Source: an uncultured Eubacteriaceae bacterium
GTDB taxonomy: Bacteria > Bacillota > Clostridia > Lachnospirales > CAG-274
Direction: 5' to 3'
Length of the DNA: 60,741 nucleotides
Assembly (NCBI GenBank): GCA_948441255.1
Contig: CAOJPS010000001.1
Location: 1 to 60,741, forward strand
This document shows positions 104 through 15,738 of the stretch, one piece after another. The notes under the pieces are model-generated. The model was not told where the DNA came from and made no database searches. It was given only the letters and a program-made list of their open reading frames with translations. Both the position numbers and the translations under genes were made by a program. Position 1 is the stretch's first letter; each line of letters starts with the position of its first letter.

Positions 104-1231
104 CTATTTTTTGACGGCTAATAAATCAGAAAGCTTATTCATATTTTTTTGTTTTAACTCCATTGACGGGTGAACATATCTATCTAATGTTATATTTACG
201 CTTGCGTGACCTAAAATCTCACTTAAACTTTTTATGTCAAATCCTATCTCAACACAGCGAGTAGCGAAAGTATGACGAAGTGCGTGAAAATTGGCGTCTT
301 TAATGCCACATTTTTTTATTGCCGCTTTAAAATGGTTCTGCAATGTCCGAGGTTCTAAAAACTTATTTTTACTCCCTGTCAATAAAAAAGCGTCCCTATG
401 ACACTCAATTTCCTGTAAAACACAATATAAGTTATTAGGAATAGGTATTTTTCTTATTGACGAGCAGCTTTTAGGAACAGAAACAATAACCTTTGTTTTA
501 GGGATTTCAGAATTACTTGTCTGCAATCTCTGCATTGTTTTGTCTACAGATATAAAGCGTTCTTCAAATGATATATCTTTCCACTTTAAAGCGCATACTT
601 CGCCTATTCTTATTCCTGTATACATACAAATTAGTATTCCTATGTTACATAAAGACTTATTATCACATAAGTATTGATTTAGTTTGTGCTGTTCTGAAAC
701 ACTTAAAATTCTCATAGGCTTAAATTCATGTTTTACATAAATTCCGCTGAAATCAGGTATATTTATATCCTCATTTTTTGAGGCGTATATAAAAATACTT
801 TTCAAAATAGATAAAATTCCGGATATAGTTCTTGATGACAGACCTTTTTTATTACCGCCGCTAAAATTTAATAGTTCATTATAAAAATCCATTATATCTC
901 TGCTGGTAATAGAATTAATTAATGACTTATCGAATTTTGGATAAAGATGTACTTTAAGAATATTACTATATTTTATGATACTTGATTCTTTAAGCCGAGA
1001 TTTTAAAGATTCCAGCCACTTTTCAGCCATAACTTTAAAATATATATTATTTGAACCTTTGTATGTTTCATTAATAGCCTTGATAAGCTTTTCTTTAGTT
1101 TCTTTATATGTTTTGCCATAGATATATCCGTATTTTGCTTTATTATCAGCAAATTCCTTAATATAGCGACCTTCCCATCTTCCATCTTTTCTTTTGTAAA
1201 TATTTTCTCCTTTTTTTGACACTTGTATCAC
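104..1231 (-). CDS. Tyrosine site-specific recombinase (phage-integrase family)
   Basis: The N-terminal SAM-like core-binding region begins KRKDGRWEGRY. The C-terminal catalytic region reads GIRIGEVCAL...HALRHTFATRC...LGHASVNITLDRYVH (R..HxxR..H..Y). The true start is possibly the GTG at 1222, 9 nt after GGGAGG. Confidence 0.9.
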   Translation of the reverse strand: MIQVSKKGENIYKRKDGRWEGRYIKEFADNKAKYGYIYGKTYKETKEKLIKAINETYKGSNNIYFKVMAEKWLESLKSRLKESSIIKYSNILKVHLYPKFDKSLINSITSRDIMDFYNELLNFSGGNKKGLSSRTISGILSILKSIFIYASKNEDINIPDFSGIYVKHEFKPMRILSVSEQHKLNQYLCDNKSLCNIGILICMYTGIRIGEVCALKWKDISFEERFISVDKTMQRLQTSNSEIPKTKVIVSVPKSCSSIRKIPIPNNLYCVLQEIECHRDAFLLTGSKNKFLEPRTLQNHFKAAIKKCGIKDANFHALRHTFATRCVEIGFDIKSLSEILGHASVNITLDRYVHPSMELKQKNMNKLSDLLAVKK

Positions 1232-1414
1232 CTCCCTTCTGACGCTTATTTTGACGGCTTATAAATTAAATTCACAAAATACTTATAGAAATTTATATAA
1301 AAATAACCTGTATATCTATGCAATTTAGATAAAAAGTATTTATGTAAACATACATTATTGACAAAATATTTTTTTTATGTTATATTAAAAATGATAAAGT
1401 GGATGTTGTTTTAC

Positions 1415-1441
1415 TTTCGCAGAATTTATTAATCTGCGAAA
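1415..1441. repeat. Palindrome TTTCGCAGA-n9-TCTGCGAAA between the int start region and the amidotransferase 3' end
   Basis: Read directly. It shares the TTTCGCAGAAT / TCTGCGAAA core with the palindrome at 28-60. Confidence 0.75.
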
Positions 1442-1573
1442 ATTGGTTTATTTAAGTATTGATTTTTGTATATCTTTAGTTTCAATTATAACTTTTAATA
1501 TATATTTTCATGGATAAAAAAGAAGTATCATTAATTTTGCTTTTTAATGACACTTCTTTTCTTGTATCCAATA

Positions 1574-2563
1574 TTAATCTAAATGCCCGTCAGCATTAAC
1601 ATCACACAAATAATGTTTTAGTATTTTCGGGTCATATAACAAATCCTCAATATCCGCATAGTCATATCCTATATCAAGCAAGTAATTAACTTCTGTTTCT
1701 GAAACGCCTATACTCTTAGCAAAATCAATGATATAGTTATAATACTCTTTTTCAAAATTCGGCTCTTTTTTATCTTTTTTAAAGAGAGAATAATCATCTA
1801 TACAGCCAAATTCATAACCTCTCAAATACTGATATTCCAGTAAATCAATACTTATTGTGTCAAATGTGTCTTTTTCAATTTTTCCGATTGATTTAATTTT
1901 TATTATGTCTCCGCAATTTATTTTAAGCTCGTTGTAATGTGATTTAATTTTTAATTTATTTAAAGCTTTATTCAAAATCTCTTTTGTGGAGGCGTAAATA
2001 TAAAATTTTCCAAAATTATAAACTGCCATAGGATTGTTACCTTTAACGATAAACATCTCATTTTTGTTATTCAAAACCGTAAAACAAAAAGAACCCTCAA
2101 CTTTTTCAGCCATAAATTTAAGACTGTCAAAGTCGAGGGTATTTTTCTTGTCAATAAGCTGCACAGCGATATATGTATCCGTTTGAATTTTAGTTTTCGG
2201 CAATTTTTCTTTTTTTCTTAAATCCTTGTCATTATAGATGATACCATTATGAGCGAGAGCGAAATCCAGCTTTTCAGAGTAAAACGGATGATTATTAAAA
2301 TTAAATTTTTCATTGCCTTGTGTAGTCATTCGAGTATGCCCCATAATTACTTTAGGATTACATTTAAATTTAAATCTCATTTTATGAGCGGGGAGAGGTT
2401 TTTTATAAATTTTGATATTATTTCTATTTTCATCAATATAAGCAATACCTGTTGCGTCTATGCCTCTCTGCTCACACTCAGCGGATAATACTTTTACAAT
2501 CTTTTCTTTCTGTCTTGCGGTAAAGAAGTTTTCATAGTCAATTATTCCAAATAAGCAGCACAT
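1574..2563 (-). CDS. Class-II (Ntn-type) glutamine amidotransferase domain protein with an uncharacterised C-terminal half
   Basis: The best start gives Met-Cys (MCCLFGIID...), with HTRMTTQG and HNGIIYN motifs typical of GATase_2. That ATG lies 1 nt from the upstream gene's stop, suggesting translational coupling. Confidence 0.75.
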   Translation of the reverse strand: MCCLFGIIDYENFFTARQKEKIVKVLSAECEQRGIDATGIAYIDENRNNIKIYKKPLPAHKMRFKFKCNPKVIMGHTRMTTQGNEKFNFNNHPFYSEKLDFALAHNGIIYNDKDLRKKEKLPKTKIQTDTYIAVQLIDKKNTLDFDSLKFMAEKVEGSFCFTVLNNKNEMFIVKGNNPMAVYNFGKFYIYASTKEILNKALNKLKIKSHYNELKINCGDIIKIKSIGKIEKDTFDTISIDLLEYQYLRGYEFGCIDDYSLFKKDKKEPNFEKEYYNYIIDFAKSIGVSETEVNYLLDIGYDYADIEDLLYDPKILKHYLCDVNADGHLD

Positions 2564-2564
2564 A

Positions 2565-3818
2565 TTATTCTTCCTCGCTTTCCTCATTTATTTCTACAGT
2601 TTCGTTTACATACAATTTTCTTTCTTTCAAATATTTAATAAGCTGTGGATATTTTTGTTTATCAAGTTCTGAAACAAATGTACTCCAAGCAAGACTTTTT
2701 ATTTCTGAATCGGACATATTAACCGCCGCTTCACATATAGCGTCAACCAACTGTATTGAAGCTATAAGAGTGTTATATTTAAGGGAGCCTTTGAATATTC
2801 TGATTTCGATAGTTGAATAGTTGGTAATATTCACACAGGCATATCTTCCGGTATAATTTTTCTTTGCGTCGTCAAGAATATCCATAGGCTCCTGTTTCCA
2901 GCCATATCTCTTAGCCCAGTGATTAAGCTGACTTTCTGTTCTCCTTGAAAATTTTAAAAGCTCATTCCAGTTACTCTCAAAGAAATATAATATTCTCGCA
3001 ATATATTCTTCTTGTTCTTTCGCTGTTTCTCCGAAAGCAGTACGATTTATGTGAATATGCAATCCAGATGTTGTTGTATCGTGACTTCTATAGTCAAGAC
3101 TCAGAGCAATTTTACAAATTTCATTCCACGGCATATTTTCCATATGATATTTTAAAGTCATAGGGTGAGTAACTATTTCCAATCCATCATTAAGAGAGCT
3201 GTCTGTCTTTATATAGATATTTTCAGTGTGTTTATTTGCGCATTCACATATTTCACGGGCATTTTCCTCGTCTTTTCCGCCGCCGTCTATTTCAAGCTCA
3301 CACCCGAAATATCTGTTTCCGCTCCCTTTAAAAACAGGGTCTGGTTTATAGCCATAATCGTGAAGATATTTTGAGTTGTTTTCCCGTTCATAGCAATCAT
3401 CACAATAAGGGTCTTGACCATAACCGTCATCAAGATAATTAGCGTCATCACTATGAAGTAATCTTCCGCATTCATAACATCTTGTATAATAGGTATCATA
3501 GCATTCCTGACACAAATCAATGTTATCATCACCGTAATTACATTCGTTTTCCTCACGCTCGTGACAGCAATCACAAACAAAAGACACTTCGTCAATACAG
3601 TCTGAGCAATAAACCTCATCATTTAATACATAGATTTCTTCTTCCGAAACTCTTTGTCCGCAATATGTACAAAGCTCAGATACTTCATCAATACAATCCT
3701 GACAATAATATCCATTATTAAAAACACAAGCGTCTTCCTTATCTATTTTTTTCTGACAATATAAACAAGTGACAATATTTTTTTCAATAACTTTTTCTTT
3801 CTCAATGATTTCATACAT
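2565..3818 (-). CDS. Amidoligase_2 (glutamine-synthetase-like COOH-NH2 ligase) family protein with an N-terminal 8x CxxC zinc-ribbon array
   Basis: ATG at 3818 is preceded by GGAGG (3826-3830 region). Eight CxxC pairs fall within about aa 18-150. The core motifs are FGCELEIDGGG, DSSLNDGLEIVTHP and SGLHIHINR. The longer ORF reaching 4040 overlaps the upstream gene and lacks an RBS. Confidence 0.75.
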   Translation of the reverse strand: MYEIIEKEKVIEKNIVTCLYCQKKIDKEDACVFNNGYYCQDCIDEVSELCTYCGQRVSEEEIYVLNDEVYCSDCIDEVSFVCDCCHEREENECNYGDDNIDLCQECYDTYYTRCYECGRLLHSDDANYLDDGYGQDPYCDDCYERENNSKYLHDYGYKPDPVFKGSGNRYFGCELEIDGGGKDEENAREICECANKHTENIYIKTDSSLNDGLEIVTHPMTLKYHMENMPWNEICKIALSLDYRSHDTTTSGLHIHINRTAFGETAKEQEEYIARILYFFESNWNELLKFSRRTESQLNHWAKRYGWKQEPMDILDDAKKNYTGRYACVNITNYSTIEIRIFKGSLKYNTLIASIQLVDAICEAAVNMSDSEIKSLAWSTFVSELDKQKYPQLIKYLKERKLYVNETVEINEESEEE

Positions 3819-3831
3819 AATAAATCCTCCG

Positions 3832-4134
3832 TTAATACTCTTCAGCAAGCAGCATTGTACAATAATCAAAATCATCAATAACAAAAATCTTATTCTCAAT
3901 AGAGCCGCCCTTTTCAACCGGAATAAATATTGTATTTTTATATTTAGGTTGTTCCTGTGAATGTGTAATCTGCTGAAATTCTTTGCCGCCAACGCTGATT
4001 TTTTTAAGTTCAAATACCTGTAAATAGTCTTGTTTTTCAACTTTCATAGACTTAATCATAGACCACATCAAGCTTTGCAAATAAAGTGAGATTTCTGAAT
4101 CAATTCCTTTTGTAATGTATTTTTTATCGAACAT
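3832..4134 (-). CDS. Small protein, DUF960-like (YITKGI...DYLQVFEL...ITHSQEQP pattern)
   Basis: A 100-aa ORF with GGAGG upstream. It is the first gene of the three-gene cassette. The family assignment is from memory of the DUF960 pattern only. Confidence 0.5.
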   Translation of the reverse strand: MFDKKYITKGIDSEISLYLQSLMWSMIKSMKVEKQDYLQVFELKKISVGGKEFQQITHSQEQPKYKNTIFIPVEKGGSIENKIFVIDDFDYCTMLLAEEY

Positions 4135-4172
4135 AACTGACCTCCTATTTTACATAAAAATTGCTTCAGTCA

Positions 4173-4216
4173 AAAAATCCCCTTTTGCTTATTAATCAAA
4201 GCAAAAGGGGATTTTT
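4173..4216. terminator. Perfect 16-bp-arm hairpin AAAAATCCCCTTTTGC-n12-GCAAAAGGGGATTTTT
   Basis: Read directly. A/T runs on both sides. It separates the COG2865-like gene from the amidoligase cassette. Confidence 0.6.
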
Positions 4217-4450
4217 TATAAACGCTGTCTGTTATTTTTTAATAATGTACTTCGCTAATTTAAAAGCTTGTTTTACTGATATACAAACTACTTTTTTTGT
4301 TACTTTGAATAAAATTTCTGCCATTTTAAACACCTCCATTCTGAAATTTGGGTACAAATGTGAATTCTATAAACTCACAAAATTATAATATATAATTAAA
4401 AATCTTAATTTTACGCTCATTATATATCCTTTGATTTATAAATTAATAAA

Positions 4451-4492
4451 AAAATCCGATTACTACTGTTTGTACAATAGCAATCGGATTTT
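4451..4492. terminator. Hairpin AAAATCCGATT-n20-AATCGGATTTT downstream of the COG2865-like gene
   Basis: Read directly, with flanking A/T runs. It lies about 70 nt 3' of the stop at 4560. Confidence 0.55.
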
Positions 4493-4559
4493 TAGTTTTT
4501 ATGATTTTCTCAATAATATTTATAAATTATAAAAAACTTTAAATTAAATATAAAACATT

Positions 4560-5555
4560 TTAATCATAATTTAAAACAAATTTTTCGCCAACTTTTATTC
4601 TTTTAAATGTATACTTGGTATATCTTCCATTTTTTATTTGCTCAATTTTACCTTTATCGCATAAATCTTTTAAAATCTTATATGTACTTGTTAAACCTAT
4701 ATCAAGTATTTCTTCGGCAATTTTTCTTGTAATAAAATCATTTTCTTTAATATAATTAAGTATTTTTATTTTGTACATTTCCTTTTTATCAGACGTATTA
4801 TTCATATGAGTTTTTTCTGTGCTGAACTTAGGCAATATTACCTTGAAAACTCCTTTTGACGCATTAAATAAAGGCTTTTTTTCTTTGTCAGCATATAAAT
4901 AATTAATTATACTTATTCCTGTCCCGCAATTTTCAATATATCCCATTTTACAGAATAAATCAGCAAGCTTTATATTTCTTGACTGTGAGGCACCCATTAA
5001 TACAGAATCCAACTCAAATTCATTTATTAATCCGCCTAAAGATATAAATTCTATTTTGTTATTATAGATGTTTATATTTGTGCTTCCGCTAAAGAAATAA
5101 TCTTTATGAATAACGCAGTTTAATAAAATTTCTTTTATACACTCTTTGGGATAGTTAATTATATTTGTTTTTTTTAATTCTAAAATATAATTATTTTTAT
5201 TGTAAAAGATTACAAAATCATAGGTATCTTGAAATTGCTTTAAAACGGAACCTGTAAACTCTTTTTTATGTGTAATAACTTTATTATTTTCCTCAAATAT
5301 ATTAACTCTTATTGTATGATTGCATTGGTCAGAAAGTAAAAACGCAAGATTAGTATATAAGCCCTCAATATTTTTTATATAAAACTTATTCATCTGACTT
5401 TTCCATTCTTTAATATAACGACTGCATATTTCTTTATCGAAATATTCAAATGTCAAATCTTGGTTTAGGCTTGTTCCTGTTTCATAGGATTCAGATTGTG
5501 TTATTGTATTATTATTTTTTCTAAATTCAATTTTGTTACTTTTACTTAAATGCAC
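4560..5555 (-). CDS. COG2865/Schlafen-group ATPase-fold (HATPase_c_4-like) putative transcriptional regulator with a C-terminal wHTH
   Basis: NCVIHKDYFFSGSTNINIYNNKIEFISLGGL, SQSRNIKLADLF and CGTGIS motifs. The C-terminal ITRKIAEEILDIGLTSTYKILKDLCDKGKIE looks like a wHTH. GTG start 8 nt after GAGGT. Confidence 0.55.
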   Translation of the reverse strand: MHLSKSNKIEFRKNNNTITQSESYETGTSLNQDLTFEYFDKEICSRYIKEWKSQMNKFYIKNIEGLYTNLAFLLSDQCNHTIRVNIFEENNKVITHKKEFTGSVLKQFQDTYDFVIFYNKNNYILELKKTNIINYPKECIKEILLNCVIHKDYFFSGSTNINIYNNKIEFISLGGLINEFELDSVLMGASQSRNIKLADLFCKMGYIENCGTGISIINYLYADKEKKPLFNASKGVFKVILPKFSTEKTHMNNTSDKKEMYKIKILNYIKENDFITRKIAEEILDIGLTSTYKILKDLCDKGKIEQIKNGRYTKYTFKRIKVGEKFVLNYD

Positions 5556-5643
5556 AATTTATAACCTCAATTCTTTTTCTTTTATCTTTCTTTTATATTT
5601 CTTTTATAATATCAAAAAGAAAAAGAATAATCAAGATTATTTT

Positions 5644-5826
5644 TTATAAATTAGATTCAATAAATTTAATTAAATCTTTTTTGTATATCTTCCAAAGCCT
5701 TTTATTTCCCAGTTTGAATCCTTTTAGTTTACCGCTTTTTAAATATCTTGATAAAGTTGGTCTGCTTATATTTAAAATTTTGCATACATCCTTAAAACTT
5801 AAAATTTCTGAATATTTATCAAACAT
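5644..5826 (-). CDS. Excisionase-type / MerR-superfamily HTH DNA-binding protein
   Basis: LSFKDVCKILNISRPTLSRYLKSGKLKGFKLGNKRLWKIYKKDLIKFI. The ATG at 5826 has GAGGT 8 nt upstream and overlaps the end of the upstream gene. Confidence 0.7.
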   Translation of the reverse strand: MFDKYSEILSFKDVCKILNISRPTLSRYLKSGKLKGFKLGNKRLWKIYKKDLIKFIESNL

Positions 5827-6979
5827 ATAAATGAACCTCATTTCTTCCCTTACATTTTTTCTTTGCTGTTTTATAATATTTTATTTCAGTATCGGAAATC
5901 TCTTTAAATCCTAAAAGTGAGTCGGGCGACTGTATAAAACCAATATTTTCTATTGTAACAGGTATTGGATTTAATCCCATTTCCTCAAAACAATTTTGAA
6001 TATTATCATATACATCCATACTGTTAAACAAATTTATTCCCACTGTTTTTAAATCATATTCACAGTTTTTTTCACAGTATCTCAATAATTTTATCATTTT
6101 GTTTTTACGTTTTTTCTTTCCGTTCTGTTGTTTTTCAATTATTTTTTCAGCAAGATAACTTCCGGTATAACAACAGGCAGTTGAACATTTAATCATAGCA
6201 TTATATATACTGCGAACACTTTGTTCCATCTTATTATAAAGCATACATAATACACCATAAGTATCTTCATTATTTGTATATCTTCTGATATATTTACGCT
6301 CACATCTAAGTTCCATACGCAAGGTATTATGATAAAAATCTACAATATCTTCAGGATAGCCTCTGTCGATAGCAGCTTTATGTTTATTATATAAAACAAA
6401 CTCTACGCCTTTAGATTTACTTAAAACATTATAGGAATCCTCTCTGCTGAATTTATCGCATTTTTCCTCTAATTTGGTATTAAGTCTATAACCCTTGCAC
6501 AACGGCATTCTTCTCATAATAAGTATAAACTGCTTTATTATATTTTCGTGTATTTCTTTTATGTCTTTTGTAAAATCAATTCTGCTAAGATTAAAGTCGT
6601 TTACGTCAATAGCATTATTAATAATATTCCCCAAAATTTCCGCAATAAATTTATTTAGTCTTTTAATAGCTATTATAAACTCATATATATCATTAATACT
6701 GTTTTTATATGTACCTTCTTCTATCAGACGTGACGGATTAACCTGTATTATAAGTTTATAACACATATCATATGTATATTTAAGCTTTTCTTTATCTGTA
6801 CATTTTCTAAATGTAATAATAATCCCTTTATCAACATAAGCTGTGGACGTAAAAGGATATAATTTACTATTTCCCGCTGTTCTGTCAGGAAAACAATCAA
6901 GAGTTTCCTTTAAATTATTATATTCCTCAAATGTAATTATTTTGTTAATTTCAAATGTATGTATAAAAAATATACTCAT
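5819..6979 (-). CDS. Hypothetical protein, possibly a rolling-circle type replication initiator
   Basis: LSRIDFTKDIK and LRMELRCERKYI resemble RxD...D and RxE(L)R blocks of Rep_trans / gene II-X type initiators. It sits in the position of rep in an int-xis-rep module. This is a weak call. Confidence 0.35.
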   Translation of the reverse strand: MSIFFIHTFEINKIITFEEYNNLKETLDCFPDRTAGNSKLYPFTSTAYVDKGIIITFRKCTDKEKLKYTYDMCYKLIIQVNPSRLIEEGTYKNSINDIYEFIIAIKRLNKFIAEILGNIINNAIDVNDFNLSRIDFTKDIKEIHENIIKQFILIMRRMPLCKGYRLNTKLEEKCDKFSREDSYNVLSKSKGVEFVLYNKHKAAIDRGYPEDIVDFYHNTLRMELRCERKYIRRYTNNEDTYGVLCMLYNKMEQSVRSIYNAMIKCSTACCYTGSYLAEKIIEKQQNGKKKRKNKMIKLLRYCEKNCEYDLKTVGINLFNSMDVYDNIQNCFEEMGLNPIPVTIENIGFIQSPDSLLGFKEISDTEIKYYKTAKKKCKGRNEVHLYV

Positions 6980-7247
6980 AAAATACATTCCTTTCTTTTA
7001 TTTCTTTTTTATAATAATGTTGTAAAATAATAAAAATTAATATATCATTATTTTTCATAAACATATTTATAATAAATATTAGTTTAAATAATACCCAATA
7101 AATCATATATAGTATATAAAATACAGTACATATTATAAAGCAATAATATTTGGGGCAGAGGGGCTATCTACTGTTTAGAGGATAAATATGGCGGGAAAAA
7201 CTATATATATTTGCCTGAATTATTTTTTTTAAAAAATTATTTTAAAA

Positions 7248-7280
7248 AAAGTAGTATTTTCGTTATAAAAATACTACTTT
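7248..7280 (-). terminator. Rho-independent terminator of the 935-aa gene (AAAGTAGTATTTT-n-AAAATACTACTTT)
   Basis: A 13-bp stem, followed on the minus strand by a T-run (plus-strand A7 at 7244-7250). Confidence 0.7.
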
Positions 7281-7329
7281 TACCACATTGTGAAAAATAA
7301 TGTTTATAAAATTTTTTATATGAAGAGTT

Positions 7330-10137
7330 TTATTTTTTCTGTTTCAACACATTTTGTTTATGTAAATTTTGAAGATATGTCCAGAAATAATTTATATTTT
7401 TATATTTACCAATATCAATATTCTTAGAATTATCGTTAAACAATATTTTATTTACCGCTTCTAAGTAAAACATTATCAATTCTTTATGTTCTTTTTCTTT
7501 TTCAATTTCTTTATCTTTTTCAGTTTCTTTATCTTTTTTTGTTTTTTTAGTTTTTTTAATATTCTTGTCTTTTTCAGCTTCCTTAGCCTTTTTGGCTTCC
7601 TCCGCCTCCTTAGCTTTCTTAATTTTTTTGGATTCAATAATTATTTTTTGGGTTATATTTTTCCAGATTTCAAGACATATCCAAAAATGTTCTGTATTTT
7701 CAAATTTATCAAGTGAAATATTGTTATATTCAAATAACAAATTATTTACTTTATCTAAGTAGATTTTTTTATTGTTTTTAGATATTGCGCTTTTTTCATA
7801 TTCATAATTTATTTTTTCCCTTATATCGTTCCATATTTGTAAACATTTTCTAAAATACTCTGTATTTTTATATTTAATTAAATTATCCTCATCAGTAATT
7901 AGTACCTCGTTTGCTTTAGTTAAAAATTTTTTTATTTGTTTTTTAGAAATTATTTCATCATTATACTCATTATTTAATTCTCTTGAGATATTCTTTTTAA
8001 TTTTAGTTGATATATTTTGACACTTTTGAAGATATCTCCAGAAATAGTTTATATTTTTATATTTATATAGAGAATTTGTACTGGTGTTAAACAATAATTT
8101 ATCTATTCTGTCTAAATGATTTTTCTTCTCTTCATCAGACAATAAATTTTCTTCACATTCATTAATTATTTTTATTGATATATTATTCCAAATTTCCAAG
8201 CACTTTAGAAAATAATCTTTTTGTTCGTATATATCTAAAAAATATTCATTATTTTTAAATAATACTTCATCAGATTTTTCTAATAATTTAATTGCTGTAT
8301 TATCAGATATTTCATTATTTGAAAATTTATCCAATAATATATTTCTTGTTTTTACCCATATCTTTTGAGCTTGTATATATTTATCAAAAACAAAAAGATT
8401 ATCCTGATTTGATGGACTAATCCTTGCGATTCTTTTTTCTATTCGTTTTCGTATAGTTTCAGCAAAATTTCTAACTAAGTCATTTTTATTTTTTAATTCC
8501 CAGCCCACGTCTTTACATATTTTATTTTTAGAAAAAATATATTTGCAATATTTATCTTTTAATGTTTCAATCTTAAAAGGTTTATGGCAATTTTCACATA
8601 ACTTTATTAAATCTTTTTCTTCAAGTATATGCAGCAAAAACGCCCCTATAAGCTCTTCAACATATGAAAATACATAAGCGTTTAGCGTACTCATATTAAT
8701 AAAGTCCCCAACAAGGTTATAGATATTTTTATAGTCTTTTATATTTACAATCTCATTATTTTTAATTTTAGAACTAACCTTTGTAATTGTTCTTTTTATT
8801 TTTTGTTCTCTTTTAACTTTTTCAATTTCAAAGAAAAAGTTAATACGGCTATTATCATCTATATTTCTTAAATTGGATATAATATTAATTGTTTTATAAT
8901 CTTCTTTTTTTATTTCTTCTTCATAAAATATTCTTTCTTTTTCTGAATTATCAGAATTGTCCTGAGCAATTATTTCTAATACTTTTTTCAAAATACCTAT
9001 GCTTTTTTTCAAGGATAAAATAGGCGATAGGCTTTCATTTGATATATTATATTTATAATCCCTTATTATTTCTAATATATCAAAATCTTCAATTTCAAGA
9101 TTTTTTTGAACCCATTCCTCAATAACATTCGCATAGAACAATAATTTTGTATAATATAAATCAGATATATTATTGTTTTCATTAAATAAGTTTATTAGGT
9201 ATATATAAGCGATTTGTTTAAAAAACAAAATAATGTAATATGGATATGTTTTATACTTGATATAATAAGTCTTTTTATATCTAAGCAACAAATCCATATT
9301 AGGAACGCTTTTTTTAAAATCAAGAATTGCTTTAAAAATATCATCTTTTGATGTATTCTCTATTTTTAATAAGTTTGATATTATATTTTCGGAATATTCA
9401 AAGCTTTCGATATTATCTATAATTCGGCAAATATTAATTATATCATTTGTATTATAATATATTTTTTCATTTGAATTAAGTTCTTTTTTATTACACCATA
9501 CCTCAACGCCTGTATCTTCCAGTCTTACTATATAACTTTCATAGTTATAGTTTATAGATTCCACAAAATAGCTTTTTATTTTCTGAGTTTTTTTATAAAA
9601 TAAATTTTCTGTTTTTTTTAACTTTAGATATATTTTATCTAATGGAGTTAATACTGTTTTATTTAACAACTCAAAATCAGGTTTAAATATATCGTCTATA
9701 AGTTTTTTATGAAATATGTATTTATTTTTCTCGTTTGTGTTTAGGTTATTATAATACTTAAAAAATTGACTGTAAAAAACATTAGAATATAACTTATTTA
9801 TATTATTATTTTGAGACTCAAAGTCATACAAAAATCTTAAATTTAAAAATCTCAAATAATTTTTAAATTTAATTAAGATTGAATCTAAATTTTCTTTTGT
9901 AGGCTTTGGTATTTTTAGAAAATCAAAAAAACATTTTTCAGCGTTTCTTAAAGATAAATTACTTTCTTCTAATATTTTTATGATTTTACTTTTATTAGTT
10001 CTGGAAATAGGGTTATCTTCTATTATTTCTTTTCTCTCAAAATATTTCATTTTATTGTCAAACTCGTATTCACGATAATATATTGCCTCTTCGTCTACTT
10101 CATCTTTAATTTCCATAATTTTTATTTCCTTTCGCAT
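7330..10137 (-). CDS. Large orphan protein (935 aa) with a Cys cluster, five to six C-terminal ~65-aa repeats and a Lys/Glu-rich tract
   Basis: A long uninterrupted ORF in 22%-GC DNA. Repeats have the form ...LLF(N/E)...YKN(I/T)(N/E)YFW.CL(E/Q)IW.NI..KI... The Cys cluster is CENCHKPFK..YCKYIFSKNKICKD. I recognise no enzymatic motif. Confidence 0.7.
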   Translation of the reverse strand: MRKEIKIMEIKDEVDEEAIYYREYEFDNKMKYFERKEIIEDNPISRTNKSKIIKILEESNLSLRNAEKCFFDFLKIPKPTKENLDSILIKFKNYLRFLNLRFLYDFESQNNNINKLYSNVFYSQFFKYYNNLNTNEKNKYIFHKKLIDDIFKPDFELLNKTVLTPLDKIYLKLKKTENLFYKKTQKIKSYFVESINYNYESYIVRLEDTGVEVWCNKKELNSNEKIYYNTNDIINICRIIDNIESFEYSENIISNLLKIENTSKDDIFKAILDFKKSVPNMDLLLRYKKTYYIKYKTYPYYIILFFKQIAYIYLINLFNENNNISDLYYTKLLFYANVIEEWVQKNLEIEDFDILEIIRDYKYNISNESLSPILSLKKSIGILKKVLEIIAQDNSDNSEKERIFYEEEIKKEDYKTINIISNLRNIDDNSRINFFFEIEKVKREQKIKRTITKVSSKIKNNEIVNIKDYKNIYNLVGDFINMSTLNAYVFSYVEELIGAFLLHILEEKDLIKLCENCHKPFKIETLKDKYCKYIFSKNKICKDVGWELKNKNDLVRNFAETIRKRIEKRIARISPSNQDNLFVFDKYIQAQKIWVKTRNILLDKFSNNEISDNTAIKLLEKSDEVLFKNNEYFLDIYEQKDYFLKCLEIWNNISIKIINECEENLLSDEEKKNHLDRIDKLLFNTSTNSLYKYKNINYFWRYLQKCQNISTKIKKNISRELNNEYNDEIISKKQIKKFLTKANEVLITDEDNLIKYKNTEYFRKCLQIWNDIREKINYEYEKSAISKNNKKIYLDKVNNLLFEYNNISLDKFENTEHFWICLEIWKNITQKIIIESKKIKKAKEAEEAKKAKEAEKDKNIKKTKKTKKDKETEKDKEIEKEKEHKELIMFYLEAVNKILFNDNSKNIDIGKYKNINYFWTYLQNLHKQNVLKQKK

Positions 10138-10173
10138 TAAAACTCAACTTTTATTTTTTGTTTTTTAAATAAA

Positions 10174-10212
10174 ATGTCTCCATATTTTTATGGCTAAATA
10201 TACTGGAGACAT
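10174..10212. promoter_or_regulatory. Inverted repeat ATGTCTCCA-n21-TGGAGACAT in the divergent control region
   Basis: Read directly. It ends 17 nt upstream of the candidate -35 box. Confidence 0.4.
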
Positions 10213-10229
10213 CGCTTATAATAAATACG

Positions 10230-10258
10230 TTGACCCCTCTTGATTTTTATTTTATACT
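10230..10258 (+). promoter_or_regulatory. Near-consensus sigma-A type promoter (TTGACC-17 nt-TATACT) facing the 204-aa gene
   Basis: Hexamers and the 17-nt spacing were counted directly. Confidence 0.5.
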
Positions 10259-10438
10259 AACTATCGAAAGCAGGAATATTACTTATAAAATTCCTTGAAT
10301 TTCATTTTAAAGCTTTAAGATAAAGATTAATTATGTTAAAAATATCTCCATTTTATTATTAATTTTATCATAAATAATCTATAATATCAAGGTATACCTA
10401 AATACAAGTTTAAGTAAATTAACAAGGAGGAATTATTA

Positions 10439-11053
10439 ATGAATAAAAATGATAGGAAACTTATTAATAAATTATTAAAAGCATTGGATTTAAAAGAGGA
10501 ATATGTTGAGCATAAAGCTTTAAACACCGCTGTTCAGAATGATTTGGAAACAAACATCTCTGAGAAGTCTCACTCTAATGAAAGCTATGATAAAATTACC
10601 AAAAGCATAGATATAGCGAAACAACGCAAATTAGCTGATGATATACAAAATATTGATGATTTTCAGAAATTTAAAGATAATATAATTCAAAAATTTCAGT
10701 TGCTTTTGGAATTAAAAAAGAATATTAATTCAAAAATCAAGCCTTCTTTAAAGTCAACTAAAAACGAAGTCAAAACAATAAAAAGTAAAATAAAAATAAT
10801 AACAGCGGATATTAAAGATTTATTTTCAATTACCTCTGATTTAAAAGCTGATATTAAAGATTATGAAAAAACAGTAAAATCTAACGCAAAGGATATTAAA
10901 GAAATCAAGGAGACTTTACAAAAAATAGCTATTTTACAGGGAATAATCTCTTCCGGTGATGATTTTGAGGATATAAAGAAATCAGCAAAGAAAACGCTTC
11001 GTGCCTCAAAAATTAACAATGAAAATCAGTTTTTTAAAAATATACGTTTTTAA
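10439..11053 (+). CDS. Hypothetical coiled-coil protein (204 aa)
   Basis: AAGGAGG RBS. The sequence is Lys/Asp/Ile-rich with heptad-like segments (ADIKDLFSITSDLKADIKDYEKTVKSNAKDIKEIKETLQKI). Confidence 0.6.
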   Translation: MNKNDRKLINKLLKALDLKEEYVEHKALNTAVQNDLETNISEKSHSNESYDKITKSIDIAKQRKLADDIQNIDDFQKFKDNIIQKFQLLLELKKNINSKIKPSLKSTKNEVKTIKSKIKIITADIKDLFSITSDLKADIKDYEKTVKSNAKDIKEIKETLQKIAILQGIISSGDDFEDIKKSAKKTLRASKINNENQFFKNIRF

Positions 11054-11089
11054 ATAATTATGTTTAAAATTTGAAAGGAGCTGGATTTT

Positions 11090-12706
11090 ATGTCAGAAAA
11101 AAATTATTCTGTTAAAGAAAAATTTGCGGACAATGGCTGTATTAATTTTAAAATCAGTATTATTGAAAAAGAAATAATAAGAGATATTAAAGGAAATAAC
11201 ATAGCCGTAAAATTTTTAGTATGCGTAAAATATCCAGATGGGAAAGAGTGTAAAAAGTGGCTGGAGGATTTAACGAATATAGACTATTTTAAAGAGTTTG
11301 GAATAATTGATGTATTATTTACTTCTAAATTAAGAAAACAACTCTTAGAAACTCTTTTTGTTGAGGCAAATAAGGCGAAAACAATATATAAAATTAAAGT
11401 AAGTTCTGGTTATCAGGTTATTAATTATACACCATTATTTGTTTTTGGAAATAATTTTTACTGGAGTAAAGATATTAAAGAAGAGCTTCAAATAAACTCC
11501 CCTTATAATATTACATTGAGCAGTAAAGATGTTTTTAATGAAGATTTCCTGTCAACTTTAGAAAGCTATATGAATCTTTTACCGTGTGTAACAGAGCTTC
11601 TCTTTTATACAGCAGAGTTTGCCATAGTGAAACAATTTATCGAAAAATCTGGAATAAAATGTAGTTTTGCCACTGTTTTTATAGCCACTTCCGGACACTT
11701 AAAAACAACATTATCAGAGTTATTTTATCTTTGGCTTGATGATATCAAAGAGCAGACAATTAAGTTTTTTAATCCTCCAAAAAATAAAATTTTATTTGAT
11801 AAAATTGATTCTCTTTTGGGACTAAATCTTTTATTTGACGACCTTAGAATAATTGATAATACCTATGATAATAAAAAACAAGCACGAAATCTTGATAATG
11901 CTGTAAGGTATGCCGCAGAGGATGGAAAAGCTAATCTAATTATTACAGGAGAAACCATCGAATCTGTTGGAATATTTAGTTGTCTTGACAGAGTTTTTCA
12001 GATTTACATAAAGGAAATGAAAGCTTCTGAAATAAGGGAATTAAAAATTCGCCTGACAAACTTAAAGAAAAATTTTATGCCTTATGTTTCGGCAATGTTT
12101 GCGGAAGTATTAATAAAAAACCATAATGAGGTTATTCAATTTATTAAAGATTTTTATACTGCGAATAATAACAAAGTCTATATAGAACACGAATATGTCA
12201 CCAGAACAGAACGTTACGCAATGTTTATTAAACTGACACAAAAATTATTTGTTAAATATATTTTAAGAAACTACCCAGAAATAAATAATCTTAATGATAA
12301 TTTTGAAAAAGCGCTTAAATACCAAACCACACACCATATTAATATGCTTCAAAAGAAAAAAATTGCTGAAACAGAAACTAATTATATAATTCTATTTTAT
12401 TACGCTATATTTGAGAATAGTTCTATCAAAATACTTGAAGAACCGAGGGAATATTTAGCTAATGAGGGTACTTGCTGCGTTAATGATAAAGGTCAGCTAT
12501 TTATAACTCGTGAAACATTAGAGCAAGCGTTTCAAAAGTATTATGAAAAAAATATTTATATTAATATTAATAAATTAATCAAAAAGTTTAATCAAGAAGG
12601 TTTATTATTTTTAGATACAAGCAGCAGAGGCTATCAAAAAAATTATAAACAGAAAAAACATTATGTTATAAATTTAAAACTTTTATCAAGCAAACTTAAA
12701 GAATAA
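11090..12706 (+). CDS. Hypothetical protein (538 aa) with a degenerate P-loop-like segment
   Basis: AAAGGAG RBS. ATSGHLKTT (Walker-A-like, but lacking the GK glycine) is followed about 45 aa later by LNLLFDDL (Walker-B-like). It may be a DUF927/D5-like helicase relative; this is very tentative. Confidence 0.55.
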   Translation: MSEKNYSVKEKFADNGCINFKISIIEKEIIRDIKGNNIAVKFLVCVKYPDGKECKKWLEDLTNIDYFKEFGIIDVLFTSKLRKQLLETLFVEANKAKTIYKIKVSSGYQVINYTPLFVFGNNFYWSKDIKEELQINSPYNITLSSKDVFNEDFLSTLESYMNLLPCVTELLFYTAEFAIVKQFIEKSGIKCSFATVFIATSGHLKTTLSELFYLWLDDIKEQTIKFFNPPKNKILFDKIDSLLGLNLLFDDLRIIDNTYDNKKQARNLDNAVRYAAEDGKANLIITGETIESVGIFSCLDRVFQIYIKEMKASEIRELKIRLTNLKKNFMPYVSAMFAEVLIKNHNEVIQFIKDFYTANNNKVYIEHEYVTRTERYAMFIKLTQKLFVKYILRNYPEINNLNDNFEKALKYQTTHHINMLQKKKIAETETNYIILFYYAIFENSSIKILEEPREYLANEGTCCVNDKGQLFITRETLEQAFQKYYEKNIYININKLIKKFNQEGLLFLDTSSRGYQKNYKQKKHYVINLKLLSSKLKE

Positions 12707-13010: not shown

Positions 13011-13046
13011 TCCTTGCTATGGTTATATATTTTATCATAGCAAGGA
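13011..13046. promoter_or_regulatory. Perfect 11-bp-arm hairpin TCCTTGCTATG-n14-CATAGCAAGGA, 27 nt upstream of the recombinase start
   Basis: Read directly. No T-run follows it. Confidence 0.45.
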
Positions 13047-13072
13047 TAAAATATATAAGAGGGAGGAAAATT

Positions 13073-15352
13073 ATGATAAGTGAACCTAAAATCGCTATTT
13101 ACGCAAGAAAGTCAAAATTAACAGAAACAGGAAAATCTATCGATAATCAGATATCTAAGTGCAAAGCTTATGCTTTTTTGAAATTTGACGCAGGCGATAA
13201 TGATATAGAAATATATCACGATGATGGAAAATCAGGATTTTATGCTGACAGACCGGAATATTTAAAAATGCTTAAAGATATTGAAAAAGGTAAAATAAAA
13301 GCTGTTATATGCTATAAATTTGATAGAATTTCAAGGCGTACACTTGATTTGCTTAATTTAGTAGAAAGATTAAAGTCAAAGAAAATAACTTTTGTATCGT
13401 GTTCTGACGATATTGATACAAGCTCTAAAACAGGCAAAGTATTAATGAGTATGTTAGCGATTATAGCTGAGTTTGAACGAGATATTATAGCTGAAAGAAT
13501 ATCCGATAATCTTTATGAATTATCAAAAGAAGGGCGATGGCTTGGCGGTGTAACACCAACCGGATTTTATTCTAAAAAAGAATCAATTATGCTGCACGGA
13601 AGAAAATCAACTGTAAATCACCTTGAACCTATACCCGAAGAGCTTATTGCGGTAAAAAAAATTTATGAAATATTTTTACAAAAACATTCAATAAATGAAA
13701 CGGTAAGATACACTTTAAAAAATAATATCCTCACAAAAAACAATAAAAATCATACGGAAATAAGCATTAAAAATATACTTTCAAATCCTGTATATGCCAT
13801 AGCGGACGAAGATATTTACAATTACTACACTGAAAAGGGAATAGTGCTTTATGCTGAAAAAGAAAACTTTAACGGTATAAATGGCTTAATGGTATACAAT
13901 AAAACTCAGCAGATTAAAGAGCTTAAAGATGACAGTGTTACTTTAAATCCTAAATATATTCATAAAAACTCAGCAAAAAAACGTGAAGACTGGGTTATTT
14001 CCGTAGGAAAACACAAGGGTATTATACAAGGGCGTGACTGGATAGCCGTTCAGGAAACTTTAGCTGAAAATAAAAGCAAATACGCAAGACCAAATAAAAA
14101 AACAAACGCTCTTTTAGGCGGTCTTATCGTTTGTCCTGTATGCGGTAAAAATATGTATGCGCATAAAGAAAACAGGCGCTTTGAGCAAAATGGAGAACCA
14201 AGATTTGTTTATCGTTGTTCCTCAAGAAAGTATGATACAACGGCTTGTACATATAAACCGCTGAGAGGCAGTGTTATCGACAAATTTATTCTTGATACTT
14301 TATGTAAGATTGGAAGTAAAAATTCGGATGAATACTATAAAGCTCTTGAAGATGAAATCAAGCTAAACAGTTATAACGCTTTGCGAGATGAGGAATCAGA
14401 ACTTCAAAAAAAAATAAAGCGGCTTAAATCAGAATTACAGTCACAAATTGAAAATTTACGAATCGCCTCAGGAGCGTCAAAAGAATTTATAATGGCTGAT
14501 ATAAATAAATTGTCAAATGAAATAAAAGTTTATGAAAATCAGCTTAACCAAATACAAGAGAATAAAACAAGCGATACAACAACTCTTAAAGGTTTGGAAA
14601 AAGCGAGAGAATTAATAAATTCTTTTGAGAATCTGATTGATACTATGACTTATGAGGAAAAACTGGAGCTTGTACGGCTAGTTATAGCTAAAGTATATGT
14701 TATAAACAAAGATAATATTACTGATGAAAATGGTAAAAATGTCCCAAATGACGAAGTACATATTTTTCTGAAAGGTATACCAGAAGAAAATTATGAGGAA
14801 TTCTTCAAAAATATAAATCCTATAAAACGGGATTTACAGCAAAATAATGAGAATATTAAGGCTCAGCCCCATTCAAAAGGGGTTGAGCTTTTATTTTGCC
14901 GTAATTCTGATAATGCGCTTATGACATTAATTCACATTATATTACCCATTAAAGAACTTTCAGACAATCCTACGATTGGCGAAAAAATAAAATATTATCG
15001 TTTTATAAATAATCTTACACAGGAAGATTTAGCTAAATTATTAAATATAAGCCGTACTACAATAATAAAATATGAAAATAGTGAGCTTTCTGTCCCTCTA
15101 AATGTTCTAAATAAAGCGGCTGAACTATTTAATATTCCTTCTGATTTTCTTTATGATGATTACAGTTCTTTCTTAGCGTATCCTTGTTCCAAGAAAATAA
15201 AGGAAATACGCAAAAAAGAAAATCTAACACAACAGAAATTGGCTGATAGTCTTAATGTAAGTAAAAAAACAATAAAAACTTGGGAAAGCGGAAGAGGGTT
15301 AATATCCAGAGAGAATTTTCAAAAGTTAAAAAAATTATATCTTAATAATTAA
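13073..15352 (+). CDS. Large serine recombinase (SpoIVCA-like) fused to two C-terminal XRE-type HTH domains
   Basis: GGGAGG RBS. The resolvase domain includes IAIYARKSKLTETGKSIDNQ, ICYKFDRISRR and LAIIAEFERDII. A recombinase domain follows, then a zinc ribbon (CPVCGKNMYAH...YRCSSRKYDTTAC) and a coiled coil. After that come IGEKIKYYRFINNLTQEDLAKLLNISRTTIIKYENSE and IKEIRKKENLTQQKLADSLNVSKKTIKTWESG. Confidence 0.9.
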   Translation: MISEPKIAIYARKSKLTETGKSIDNQISKCKAYAFLKFDAGDNDIEIYHDDGKSGFYADRPEYLKMLKDIEKGKIKAVICYKFDRISRRTLDLLNLVERLKSKKITFVSCSDDIDTSSKTGKVLMSMLAIIAEFERDIIAERISDNLYELSKEGRWLGGVTPTGFYSKKESIMLHGRKSTVNHLEPIPEELIAVKKIYEIFLQKHSINETVRYTLKNNILTKNNKNHTEISIKNILSNPVYAIADEDIYNYYTEKGIVLYAEKENFNGINGLMVYNKTQQIKELKDDSVTLNPKYIHKNSAKKREDWVISVGKHKGIIQGRDWIAVQETLAENKSKYARPNKKTNALLGGLIVCPVCGKNMYAHKENRRFEQNGEPRFVYRCSSRKYDTTACTYKPLRGSVIDKFILDTLCKIGSKNSDEYYKALEDEIKLNSYNALRDEESELQKKIKRLKSELQSQIENLRIASGASKEFIMADINKLSNEIKVYENQLNQIQENKTSDTTTLKGLEKARELINSFENLIDTMTYEEKLELVRLVIAKVYVINKDNITDENGKNVPNDEVHIFLKGIPEENYEEFFKNINPIKRDLQQNNENIKAQPHSKGVELLFCRNSDNALMTLIHIILPIKELSDNPTIGEKIKYYRFINNLTQEDLAKLLNISRTTIIKYENSELSVPLNVLNKAAELFNIPSDFLYDDYSSFLAYPCSKKIKEIRKKENLTQQKLADSLNVSKKTIKTWESGRGLISRENFQKLKKLYLNN

Positions 15353-15390: not shown

Positions 15391-15738
15391 TCATATAGCA
15401 TTTTCAATACATCTTGCAGCGTAGGTCGCAAGTTTTGTACCCTTGTTATTTTTAAAGGTTGTGACGGCTTTAATCAGGCCTATGGTTCCGACTGAAATTA
15501 AATCTTCGCTGTCTTTGCTGTAATTGGGATATTTTTTTACTATGTGCGCTACAAGTCTTAAGTTGCGTTCCACTAGTATACATTTTGCCTCATTTTTTTC
15601 CTCATCATTTCCGTTTTGAATTTGAAAAAGCCATTTATCTTCTTCCTCAGCCGTTAATGGCTTTGGAAACGCTCCTCCTGTTGAAATGTGTGAAAAAATA
15701 AAAAAACTCTGCAAAAATCCCAAAATCGCGAAAACCAC
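15391..15738 (-). CDS. sigK: 5' segment of sigK (pro-sigma-K, spoIVCB-like), truncated by the island after ...GTKLATYAARCIEN
   Basis: GTG start after GGAGGTG. A short hydrophobic pro-sequence precedes FPKPL, ERNLRLVAHIVKKY, DLISVGTIGLIKAV and GTKLATYAARCIEN. The frame then reads AI-stop instead of the conserved EILMHLR continuation. Confidence 0.85.
   Translation of the reverse strand: MVFAILGFLQSFFIFSHISTGGAFPKPLTAEEEDKWLFQIQNGNDEEKNEAKCILVERNLRLVAHIVKKYPNYSKDSEDLISVGTIGLIKAVTTFKNNKGTKLATYAARCIENAI

Follow-up and report, generated by a model that had tools for sequence, protein, structure and literature searches.

Positions 1574-4134 of the DNA analysed here, a window of 60,741 nucleotides (nt) from contig CAOJPS010000001.1 (assembly GCA_948441255.1) of an uncultured Eubacteriaceae bacterium, carry three genes, all on the minus strand, in the order DUF960, Amidoligase_2 ligase with a predicted N-terminal LIM-like zinc array, and class-II glutamine amidotransferase (GATase) of the N-terminal nucleophile (Ntn) type. 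The ligase and the GATase constitute a real unit, and the arrangement of the cassette, whose gene order is found again at more than 100 independent loci, is far beyond chance. It is proposed, tentatively and with less than even confidence, that the pair is a co-translated split glutamine amidotransferase that modifies a protein during establishment of the element carrying it.

An earlier reading of this DNA (the original prediction) had described three closely packed minus-strand genes separated by 13 and 1 nt, and both the coordinates and the spacing are confirmed (Table 1). The 13 nt between DUF960 and the ligase contain GGAGG, and a single nucleotide parts the TAA of the ligase from the ATG TGC TGC of the GATase. 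For comparison, 160 related loci were scored with profiles built from the window proteins, 80 of them from genomes (almost all gut Oscillospiraceae, Ruminococcus and other Clostridia) and 80 from IMG/VR. The GATase lies directly downstream of the ligase in 75 of the 81 close genome loci with room for it, and -1 to +5 nt separate the ligase stop from the Met-Cys start in 90 of 107 non-redundant loci, a spacing typical of subunits made in a fixed ratio. The few loci that lack the GATase show short or antisense open reading frames (ORFs) at the expected spot, where we suspect gene decay or assembly errors. The third gene is less constant: of the 75 close genome loci having the GATase, 44 (59%) show DUF960 upstream of the ligase and the other 41% lack it, so that, when the co-occurrence of the proposed triad is tabulated, the enzyme pair holds and DUF960 follows it in part only.

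Table 1. Features of the cassette and its surroundings (positions in the window)
Feature	Position	Strand	Description
DUF960 gene	3832-4134	-	100 aa; ribosome-binding site (RBS) AGGAGG
Zinc-module + Amidoligase_2 gene	2565-3818	-	417 aa; ends TAA
Four zinc modules	3393-3767	-	eight CxxC, aa 18-142; about two LIM-like domains (predicted); pI 4.05
Glutamine synthetase-like carboxylate-amine ligase domain (predicted)	2568-3356	-	aa 155-417; PF12224
Stand-alone class-II Ntn GATase gene (predicted)	1574-2563	-	329 aa; start ATG TGC TGC
Class-II (Ntn) glutaminase domain	1964-2563	-	aa 1-200; Met-Cys start
GATase C-terminal extension	1574-1963	-	~130 aa; acidic, poorly conserved
Upstream terminator-like hairpin	4172-4217	-	19-bp perfect stem, then T-run; minimum free energy (MFE) -32.8 kcal/mol, z=-5.9
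Downstream terminator-like hairpin	1511-1570	-	MFE -25 kcal/mol, z=-8.1; then UUUUUU
Upstream 30-aa ORF	4232-4324	-	MAEILFKVTKKVVCISVKQAFKLAKYIIKK; stop 14 nt before hairpin
Tyrosine integrase	104-1231		element gene beside cassette
HATPase_c_4 + winged helix-turn-helix protein	4560-5555	-	adjoins cassette; phrog_12156 match
Large serine recombinase	13019-15352		777 aa; two C-terminal helix-turn-helix domains; abuts SigK fragment
SigK N-terminal fragment	15391-15738		115 aa; profile positions 12-115 of 235

The pairing extends well outside the close relatives. An exhaustive search for the ligase family returned 9,519 clusters of 50% identity at E<=1e-3 and 1,592 at E<=1e-30, an indexed search gave more than 2,730 matches (the top 120 all at least 42% identical and mostly of ~370 aa), and single 90% clusters contain up to 2,376 member sequences. 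In distant viral relatives of 31-41% identity the ligase is followed by a divergent 'MC...' Ntn protein, which aligns to the GATase profile via the catalytic motifs (hhalign probability 97%, E=1e-10), and gp105/gp106 of mycobacteriophage Marvin represent the same ligase/Ntn pairing. Clustering of the neighbours revealed positional conservation for only the three cassette genes, with a small serine resolvase often placed after the pair; a PHROGs search on the neighbours in the distant viral loci was uninformative.

On one viral contig (L170, 9152-9607) a 151-aa gene, by its motif a putative HNH homing endonuclease, is inserted between the amidoligase and the Ntn gene, and in the LUZ24-like phage UFV-P2 an annotated HNH endonuclease (ORF24) separates the pair (ORF23/25). 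The ~130-kb phage-plasmids pCd11_2 of C. difficile (L176, 117986-119107) and Clostridioides phage AR1086-1 carry a related amidoligase of 39% identity over the catalytic domain, which has no adjacent GATase and adjoins a DUF1653 protein and anaerobic ribonucleotide reductase genes.

Domains and folds of the three proteins

The C-terminal domain of the middle protein is a predicted ATP-dependent carboxylate-amine ligase of the glutamine synthetase (GS) fold with its active-site signature intact. The domain calls of the original prediction (amidoligase, Ntn class-II GATase and DUF960) are upheld by profile matches in Pfam and NCBIfam, in the case of the ligase by Amidoligase_2 (PF12224) over aa 202-361 (27.1 bits against a cutoff of 22, E=4.8e-6); among the PHROGs, phrog_16683 (E=8e-87) and phrog_2443 'amidoligase' (E=3e-9) are matched. 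The motifs FGCELEIDGGG, DSSLNDGLEIVTHP and SGLHIHINR, already noticed at that stage, are present, and E174, E176, D206, S208, E214, H254, H256 and E338 are invariant among 93 homologues, with R340 kept in at least 90% of them; judging by the motifs, these acidic, His and Arg residues would be the equivalents of the metal- and phosphate-binding residues of GS. The AlphaFold2 model, with a mean predicted local distance difference test score (pLDDT) of 90, has four successive zinc modules at its N-terminus and a GS-type domain at its C-terminus. For the latter, Foldseek retrieved YbdK (1r8g/1tt4), GS III, GmaS and PafA/Dop with probabilities of 0.96-1.0, at template-modelling (TM) scores of only 0.26-0.39 that result in part from normalisation over the whole two-domain model. 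A search of the PDB by sequence yielded no match for the ligase, and no experimentally characterised member of Amidoligase_2 was found in the literature searched.

The N-terminal region contains eight CxxC pairs (C18/21, 39/42, 50/53, 71/74, 82/85, 103/106, 114/117 and 139/142), from which four zinc ribbons had been predicted. The pairs are confirmed, and the modules are probably LIM-like treble clefs rather than classical zinc ribbons, as Foldseek aligns the modelled array with the tandem LIM domains of LMO2, CRP1 and PINCH (E ~6e-5) and a profile search against the PDB returns LIM proteins (E=0.003). The Pfam LIM profile (PF00412) stays below its threshold on the window ligase (19.8 vs 22.9 bits, E=9e-4), and a precomputed PF00412 match is present on some of the homologues. 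LIM domains usually mix Cys, His and Asp ligands; those of the window array are all Cys. The array had been taken for an extra component, and it turns out to be the standard architecture of the family, within the 1,592 clusters at E<=1e-30: six CxxC motifs occur in 107 of the 120 top homologues and in 75 of 77 genome loci, relative to which the window ligase has one module more than the norm, and four to twelve are found in distant relatives. Of the two kinds of target originally envisaged for the array, protein is favoured and nucleic acid is not. Its pI is 4.05 in the window, with a median of 4.05 and a maximum of 4.77 in 116 homologues; because a pI of about 4 holds across the family, a DNA- or RNA-binding module is disfavoured, and the acidity points to a protein target.

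The downstream protein begins with Met-Cys (ATG TGC), as predicted, and an 'MC' start is found in 107 of 108 aligned GATase sequences, the window protein included. In Pfam, GATase_6 (53.2 bits, cutoff 27; E=4e-14) and GATase_7 (E=8e-10) match aa 67-197, and the NCBIfam alignment pairs aa 1-199 with the glutaminase domain of GlmS. At least 95% of 107 homologues keep the Cys that follows Met as well as R77, N106-G107 and D129, the last three aligning with the glutamine site of GlmS/PurF, and none of the residues needed for binding the glutamyl group of glutamine, or that of a gamma-glutamyl amide, has been lost. The N-domain is basic, with a charge of +10.8. The ~130-aa tail, described earlier as free of recognisable motifs, indeed has no Pfam match (best E=0.088). 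Since no cognate synthase or acceptor domain is fused to the glutaminase domain, which is followed by this tail alone, the protein is filed on its sequence as a putative stand-alone Ntn glutamine/gamma-glutamyl amidohydrolase rather than as a canonical amidotransferase, and the separate upstream ligase gene encodes the candidate acceptor enzyme.

DUF960 (PF06124) is matched over its full length (E=6e-24, profile positions 1-94 of 94; Pfam), and its AlphaFold2 model (pLDDT 94) shows two helices and a five-stranded sheet. The one structure that resembles the fold is 2R41 (TM 0.73-0.77), from an Enterococcus protein whose function is unknown, and 2R41 is also the only entry that a profile search against the PDB adds; plain sequence comparison with the PDB gave no match, and a fold search in BFVD no significant one. 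The C-terminal TMLLAEEY is invariant in 30 of 30 aligned sequences and belongs to the modelled fold (pLDDT 91). A Pup- or tubulin-like C-terminal tag, considered because of the invariant ...AEEY end, is ruled out, as the tail is structured and the protein is dispensable to the pair and occurs alone. DUF960 without the pair was seen in a Cetobacterium element resembling the staphylococcal cassette chromosome (SCC), together with DUF1643, a D5_N primase and a serine recombinase, in Paenibacillus with DUF932, RadC and YqaJ, and alone in Clostridium weizhouense. In staphylococcal SCC it is one of the three short proteins of the ccr complex, the others being DUF1643 and SAUGI, an inhibitor of uracil-DNA glycosylase. 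DUF960, regarded at first as a partner of the two enzymes, is therefore a frequently co-transcribed but optional small mobile-element protein and not an obligatory subunit.

Flanking hairpins and mobile-element setting

The cassette measures ~2.7 kb and has a strong hairpin at either end, the upstream one ending 37 nt ahead of the DUF960 start codon and the downstream one lying immediately 3' of the GATase stop codon. Comparable GC-rich hairpins with a T-run, 20-59 nt from the DUF960 start, precede DUF960 in 19 of 60 non-redundant related loci (the window, L015, L016, L025, L046, L088, L091 and others), against 42 of 1594 (2.6%) other genes in the same loci. The interval between hairpin and RBS is too short for a sigma-70 promoter, and Rfam gave no match on the leader regions upstream of the cassette. 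The upstream hairpin may be an insulator or a read-through control point, comparable to a terminator reported in Tn916 (PMC11658703).

The 30-aa ORF upstream of the hairpin may encode a leader or small peptide, and its membership of the cassette is uncertain. Small peptides are encoded at the equivalent spot in other loci. One of them, a hydrophobic peptide (...LGIILAAAAAILCTIIDQVMKEE) that differs from the window ORF, is encoded 0-40 nt upstream of the ligase or DUF960 (L014, L025, L027, L037, L045, L065, L086, L090, L093 and L001). Among 17 occurrences of the LGIILAAAAAILCTIIDQVMKEE motif in six frames of 170 loci, 16 are directly before the cassette (10 non-redundant), and the peptide is a candidate fourth component, associated with the membrane.

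The cassette is best explained as an accessory module carried by an integrative mobilizable element (IME). In at least 10 loci (L040, L042, L063, L076, L083, L095, L101, L103, L104 and L117) relaxase and NikA genes run in one direction and the optional DUF960, the ligase and the GATase in the other, followed by a small serine resolvase or a tyrosine integrase; being divergent from the NikA-relaxase operon, the cassette there lies beside the presumed oriT region. Other backbones bear integrases, serine recombinases, D5_N primases and DUF3846, and in one locus (L007) the neighbours are the defence-type genes AAA_15/AAA_21, RloB and Abi_alpha. The G+C content of the window cassette is 32-35%, as compared with 20-27% in the adjoining island DNA (window 1001-11000), and this excess suggests acquisition from a higher-GC lineage; the nearest relatives are metagenomic proteins (70% identical), followed by those of Oscillospiraceae (~55%).

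In the window, the cassette looks like part of a smaller integrative element inside or beside a skin-like island. The order cassette, then tyrosine integrase is seen again in other elements; further genes of the element encode an HTH_17 excisionase-like protein and a rolling-circle Rep-like protein. The HATPase_c_4 protein, which matches the PADLOC models Aga SIR2-PNTD (E=3e-11) and AbiEi, may serve the same element as a regulator or be related to defence. Near-identical palindromes at 28-61 and 1412-1441 (TTTCGCAGAAT...ATTCTGCGAAA) flank the integrase gene and could be terminators or binding sites for a recombinase or regulator. The segment 13019-15738 forms the right end of the skin-like intervening element; the opposite end falls outside the window, past its first position. 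The location inside such a sporulation-excised island had been thought unusual; a link to sporulation or the skin element is rejected as incidental, for relatives of the cassette sit in many integrase, relaxase and serine-recombinase backbones.

A 935-aa protein (7330-10137, minus strand) with internal ~60-aa repeats (NINYFW.YLQ / EYF.KCLEIWN motifs), a Lys/Glu-rich tract and DNA repeats at 7358-8065 has no match in Pfam, NCBIfam, PHROGs or PADLOC, and two plus-strand ORFs at 10439-12706 gave no match either. What remains of the window has ordinary chromosomal content (GH43, a giant protein with a pectinesterase domain, ATP synthase, IMPDH).

Possible reaction and role of the pair

From the domains, folds, active-site residues, gene order and spacing, and mobile context observed above, we infer a physical complex, a substrate, a chemistry and a role for the pair. 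The LIM array would recruit a protein or peptide substrate, on which the ligase would phosphorylate a carboxylate; the Ntn partner would free ammonia from glutamine, and the ammonia would attack the acyl-phosphate, giving the net reaction X-COOH + Gln + ATP -> X-CONH2 + Glu + ADP + Pi. The target would be a host or element protein, modified while the element establishes itself in the cell, in an anti-defence or entry function. This split-amidotransferase scheme is favoured because two enzymes present in a fixed ratio would then give a net reaction, whereas ligation followed by hydrolysis would be a futile cycle, and because the Ntn site is that of a glutaminase; a role in establishment or counter-defence is suggested by the abundance of the pair in phages, its position next to mobilization genes and the company of DUF960. 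The uniformly acidic LIM-like modules and the basic N-domain of the GATase are likewise in keeping with the scheme.

Several points weigh against it. To our knowledge, all characterised class-II amidotransferases have the Ntn domain fused to the synthase. Characterised stand-alone class-II members such as EgtC are hydrolases. Other Amidoligase_2 genes lie near genes for a gamma-glutamyl cyclotransferase, according to the literature, and this enzyme cannot donate ammonia and hints at gamma-glutamyl cleavage. The cassette adjoins mobilization genes in a minority of loci only, and some loci have defence-type neighbours (AAA_15/RloB, Abi_alpha).

A close rival, possible but in our view doubtful, is that the amidoligase links an amine of a protein or metabolite to glutamate, or to some other amino acid, by a gamma-glutamyl-type amide and that the GATase-like thiol amidohydrolase later removes or processes the linkage, as in Pup/PafA/Dop or EgtA/EgtC. 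This is reportedly the view of Iyer in 2009 and of the Pfam description, and the Pfam entry on Amidoligase_2 is said to list a GATase-like thiol peptidase or an AIG2-type cyclotransferase as neighbours of these ligases. The fold that the ligase has in common with PafA/Dop, YbdK and GmaS speaks for it, as do the hydrolytic activity of the characterised stand-alone class-II domains and the cyclotransferases that accompany related amidoligases; the Ntn site would suit gamma-glutamyl-X (a glutamyl group with free alpha groups) as well as glutamine. Two enzymes co-made in a fixed ratio would cycle futilely here unless separated in time or space, and no tag protein is encoded, the C-terminus of DUF960 being folded (pLDDT 91) and DUF960 itself missing in 41% of close loci.

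It is unlikely, in our estimate, that the pair is an entry-phase counter-defence device of IMEs and phages, in which the LIM array, produced in the new host, would seize a specific host protein, for instance one of defence or DNA processing, and the enzymes would amidate or glutamylate key carboxylates or amines and thereby neutralise it, with the hairpin gating expression and DUF960 acting as a second, independent host-directed factor. If true, this would constitute a new class of enzymatic anti-defence via amide-bond protein modification.

A cell-wall or small-molecule role, in which the pair would amidate or aminoacylate a peptidoglycan precursor or surface polymer and so exclude phages or competing elements, is improbable. 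The analogy with MurT/GatD, a ligase plus glutaminase acting on lipid II, lends itself to this reading, and the small hydrophobic peptide just upstream in 10 non-redundant loci is consistent with it; such a function was proposed for phiEco32 and is repeated in papers citing Iyer et al. 2009. Inspection of the three proteins by eye gave no clear sign of a signal peptide or membrane segment, linkage to cell-wall genes is absent, and a multi-module LIM array is hard to reconcile with a small-molecule substrate.

Anti-phage or anti-plasmid cargo, such as a toxic protein modifier triggered by infection, is improbable. The defence-type neighbours in some elements (L007), the match of the adjoining HATPase_c_4 protein to the Aga and AbiEi models, and the upstream hairpin, which suggests tight repression, argue for it; PADLOC-DB v2 returned 0 matches for the three cassette proteins at E<=0.01, no sensor or effector domain is evident, and the abundance of the pair in lytic and temperate phages better fits offence or takeover. 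The wider label of a conflict or modification system, given in the original prediction, is plausible but unproven.

The chance that the pair serves DNA base hypermodification, shielding element DNA from restriction, is very small: amidoligase and amidotransferase Pfam domains do occur beside thymidine-hypermodification genes in viral contigs, but genes for a 5-hydroxymethyldeoxyuridine kinase, aGPT-Pplase, dUMP hydroxymethylase or TET/JBP are linked neither in the window nor in the 160 loci, the acidic zinc array is ill suited to DNA, and an integrated element replicates with host nucleotides. For an enzyme that is fused to LIM modules and borne by mobilizable elements, a reading as a nitrogen-metabolism 'auxiliary metabolic gene' finds no support.

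LIM-amidoligases form a very large family spread over phages and the mobile elements of dominant gut Clostridia. No experiment has assigned a function to either enzyme of the pair or to DUF960, a protein that also belongs to the recombinase complex in SCCmec-type resistance islands. A defined substrate would give function to thousands of genes, could expose a new protein modification in conflicts between mobile elements and hosts, and would decide whether a class-II Ntn domain that stands alone can donate ammonia in trans. The window cassette is a compact, terminator-bracketed 2.7-kb unit that is directly clonable.

Relation to known systems

The core pairing was already predicted in 2009. The original prediction had pointed to ligase and amidotransferase pairs on phages and conjugative elements noted around that year by the Aravind group, and the attribution of the phage pairing is borne out in papers citing Iyer et al. 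2009, which name phiEco32, LUZ24-like phages, Marvin and OM43 phages among the carriers of amidoligase and GATase genes and state that the function of the phage pair 'remains to be explored'. The absence of an experimentally defined function, also claimed at the outset, agrees with our searches, in which neither a characterised homologue, nor a known pathway, nor a PADLOC model matched the cassette. The phage pairs (phiEco32, UFV-P2 ORF23/25, Marvin gp105/gp106, OM43) consist of the same families in the same order on mobile DNA. The window subfamily adds the predicted N-terminal LIM-like array, resides mostly on IMEs of gut Clostridia and is often headed by DUF960 or a small hydrophobic peptide; it is without the ATP-grasp and COOH-NH2_lig genes that accompany the pairs of LUZ24-like phages. 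No earlier description was found of a LIM-like array typifying the family, of DUF960 or a small peptide as an optional first gene, of the hairpin in front or of carriage on mobilizable elements, and the 2009 paper may show zinc-finger fusions. The Klebsiella 'amidoligase' CfmP is an ATP-grasp enzyme and irrelevant here.

The PafA/Dop-Pup system of Actinobacteria resembles the window pair in the GS fold of its ligase (Foldseek 4bjr, 7oyh, 5lrt), which activates the gamma-carboxylate of a glutamate and modifies proteins, and in having a companion that acts on glutamine or a glutamyl amide. In contrast to PafA, whose sequence similarity to the window ligase is undetectable, the window ligase bears a LIM array, and its companion is an Ntn class-II enzyme rather than a PafA paralogue. 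No disordered Pup-like tag accompanies the ligase; DUF960 is folded, absent from 41% of close loci and found also without the ligase.

MurT/GatD is a two-protein amidotransferase for the iso-glutamate of lipid II, composed of an ATP-dependent ligase-type subunit and a separate glutaminase encoded by co-transcribed genes, and in this make-up it is like the window pair; unlike it, MurT has the Mur-ligase fold, GatD is a glutaminase with a class-I triad, the substrate belongs to the cell wall and the genes are chromosomal housekeeping genes. EgtA/EgtC of ergothioneine biosynthesis and GmaS/N-methylglutamate synthase combine GS-like and class-II GATase-like folds by way of a gamma-glutamyl amide intermediate. 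Unlike the window cassette, these pathways serve small-molecule metabolism with more enzymes, no zinc array and no mobile-element context. The small ccr proteins of SCC include a member of the same DUF960 family, likewise next to recombinase and primase genes; elements of the SCC type lack the amidoligase and GATase, whereas DUF960 in the window heads an enzyme operon.

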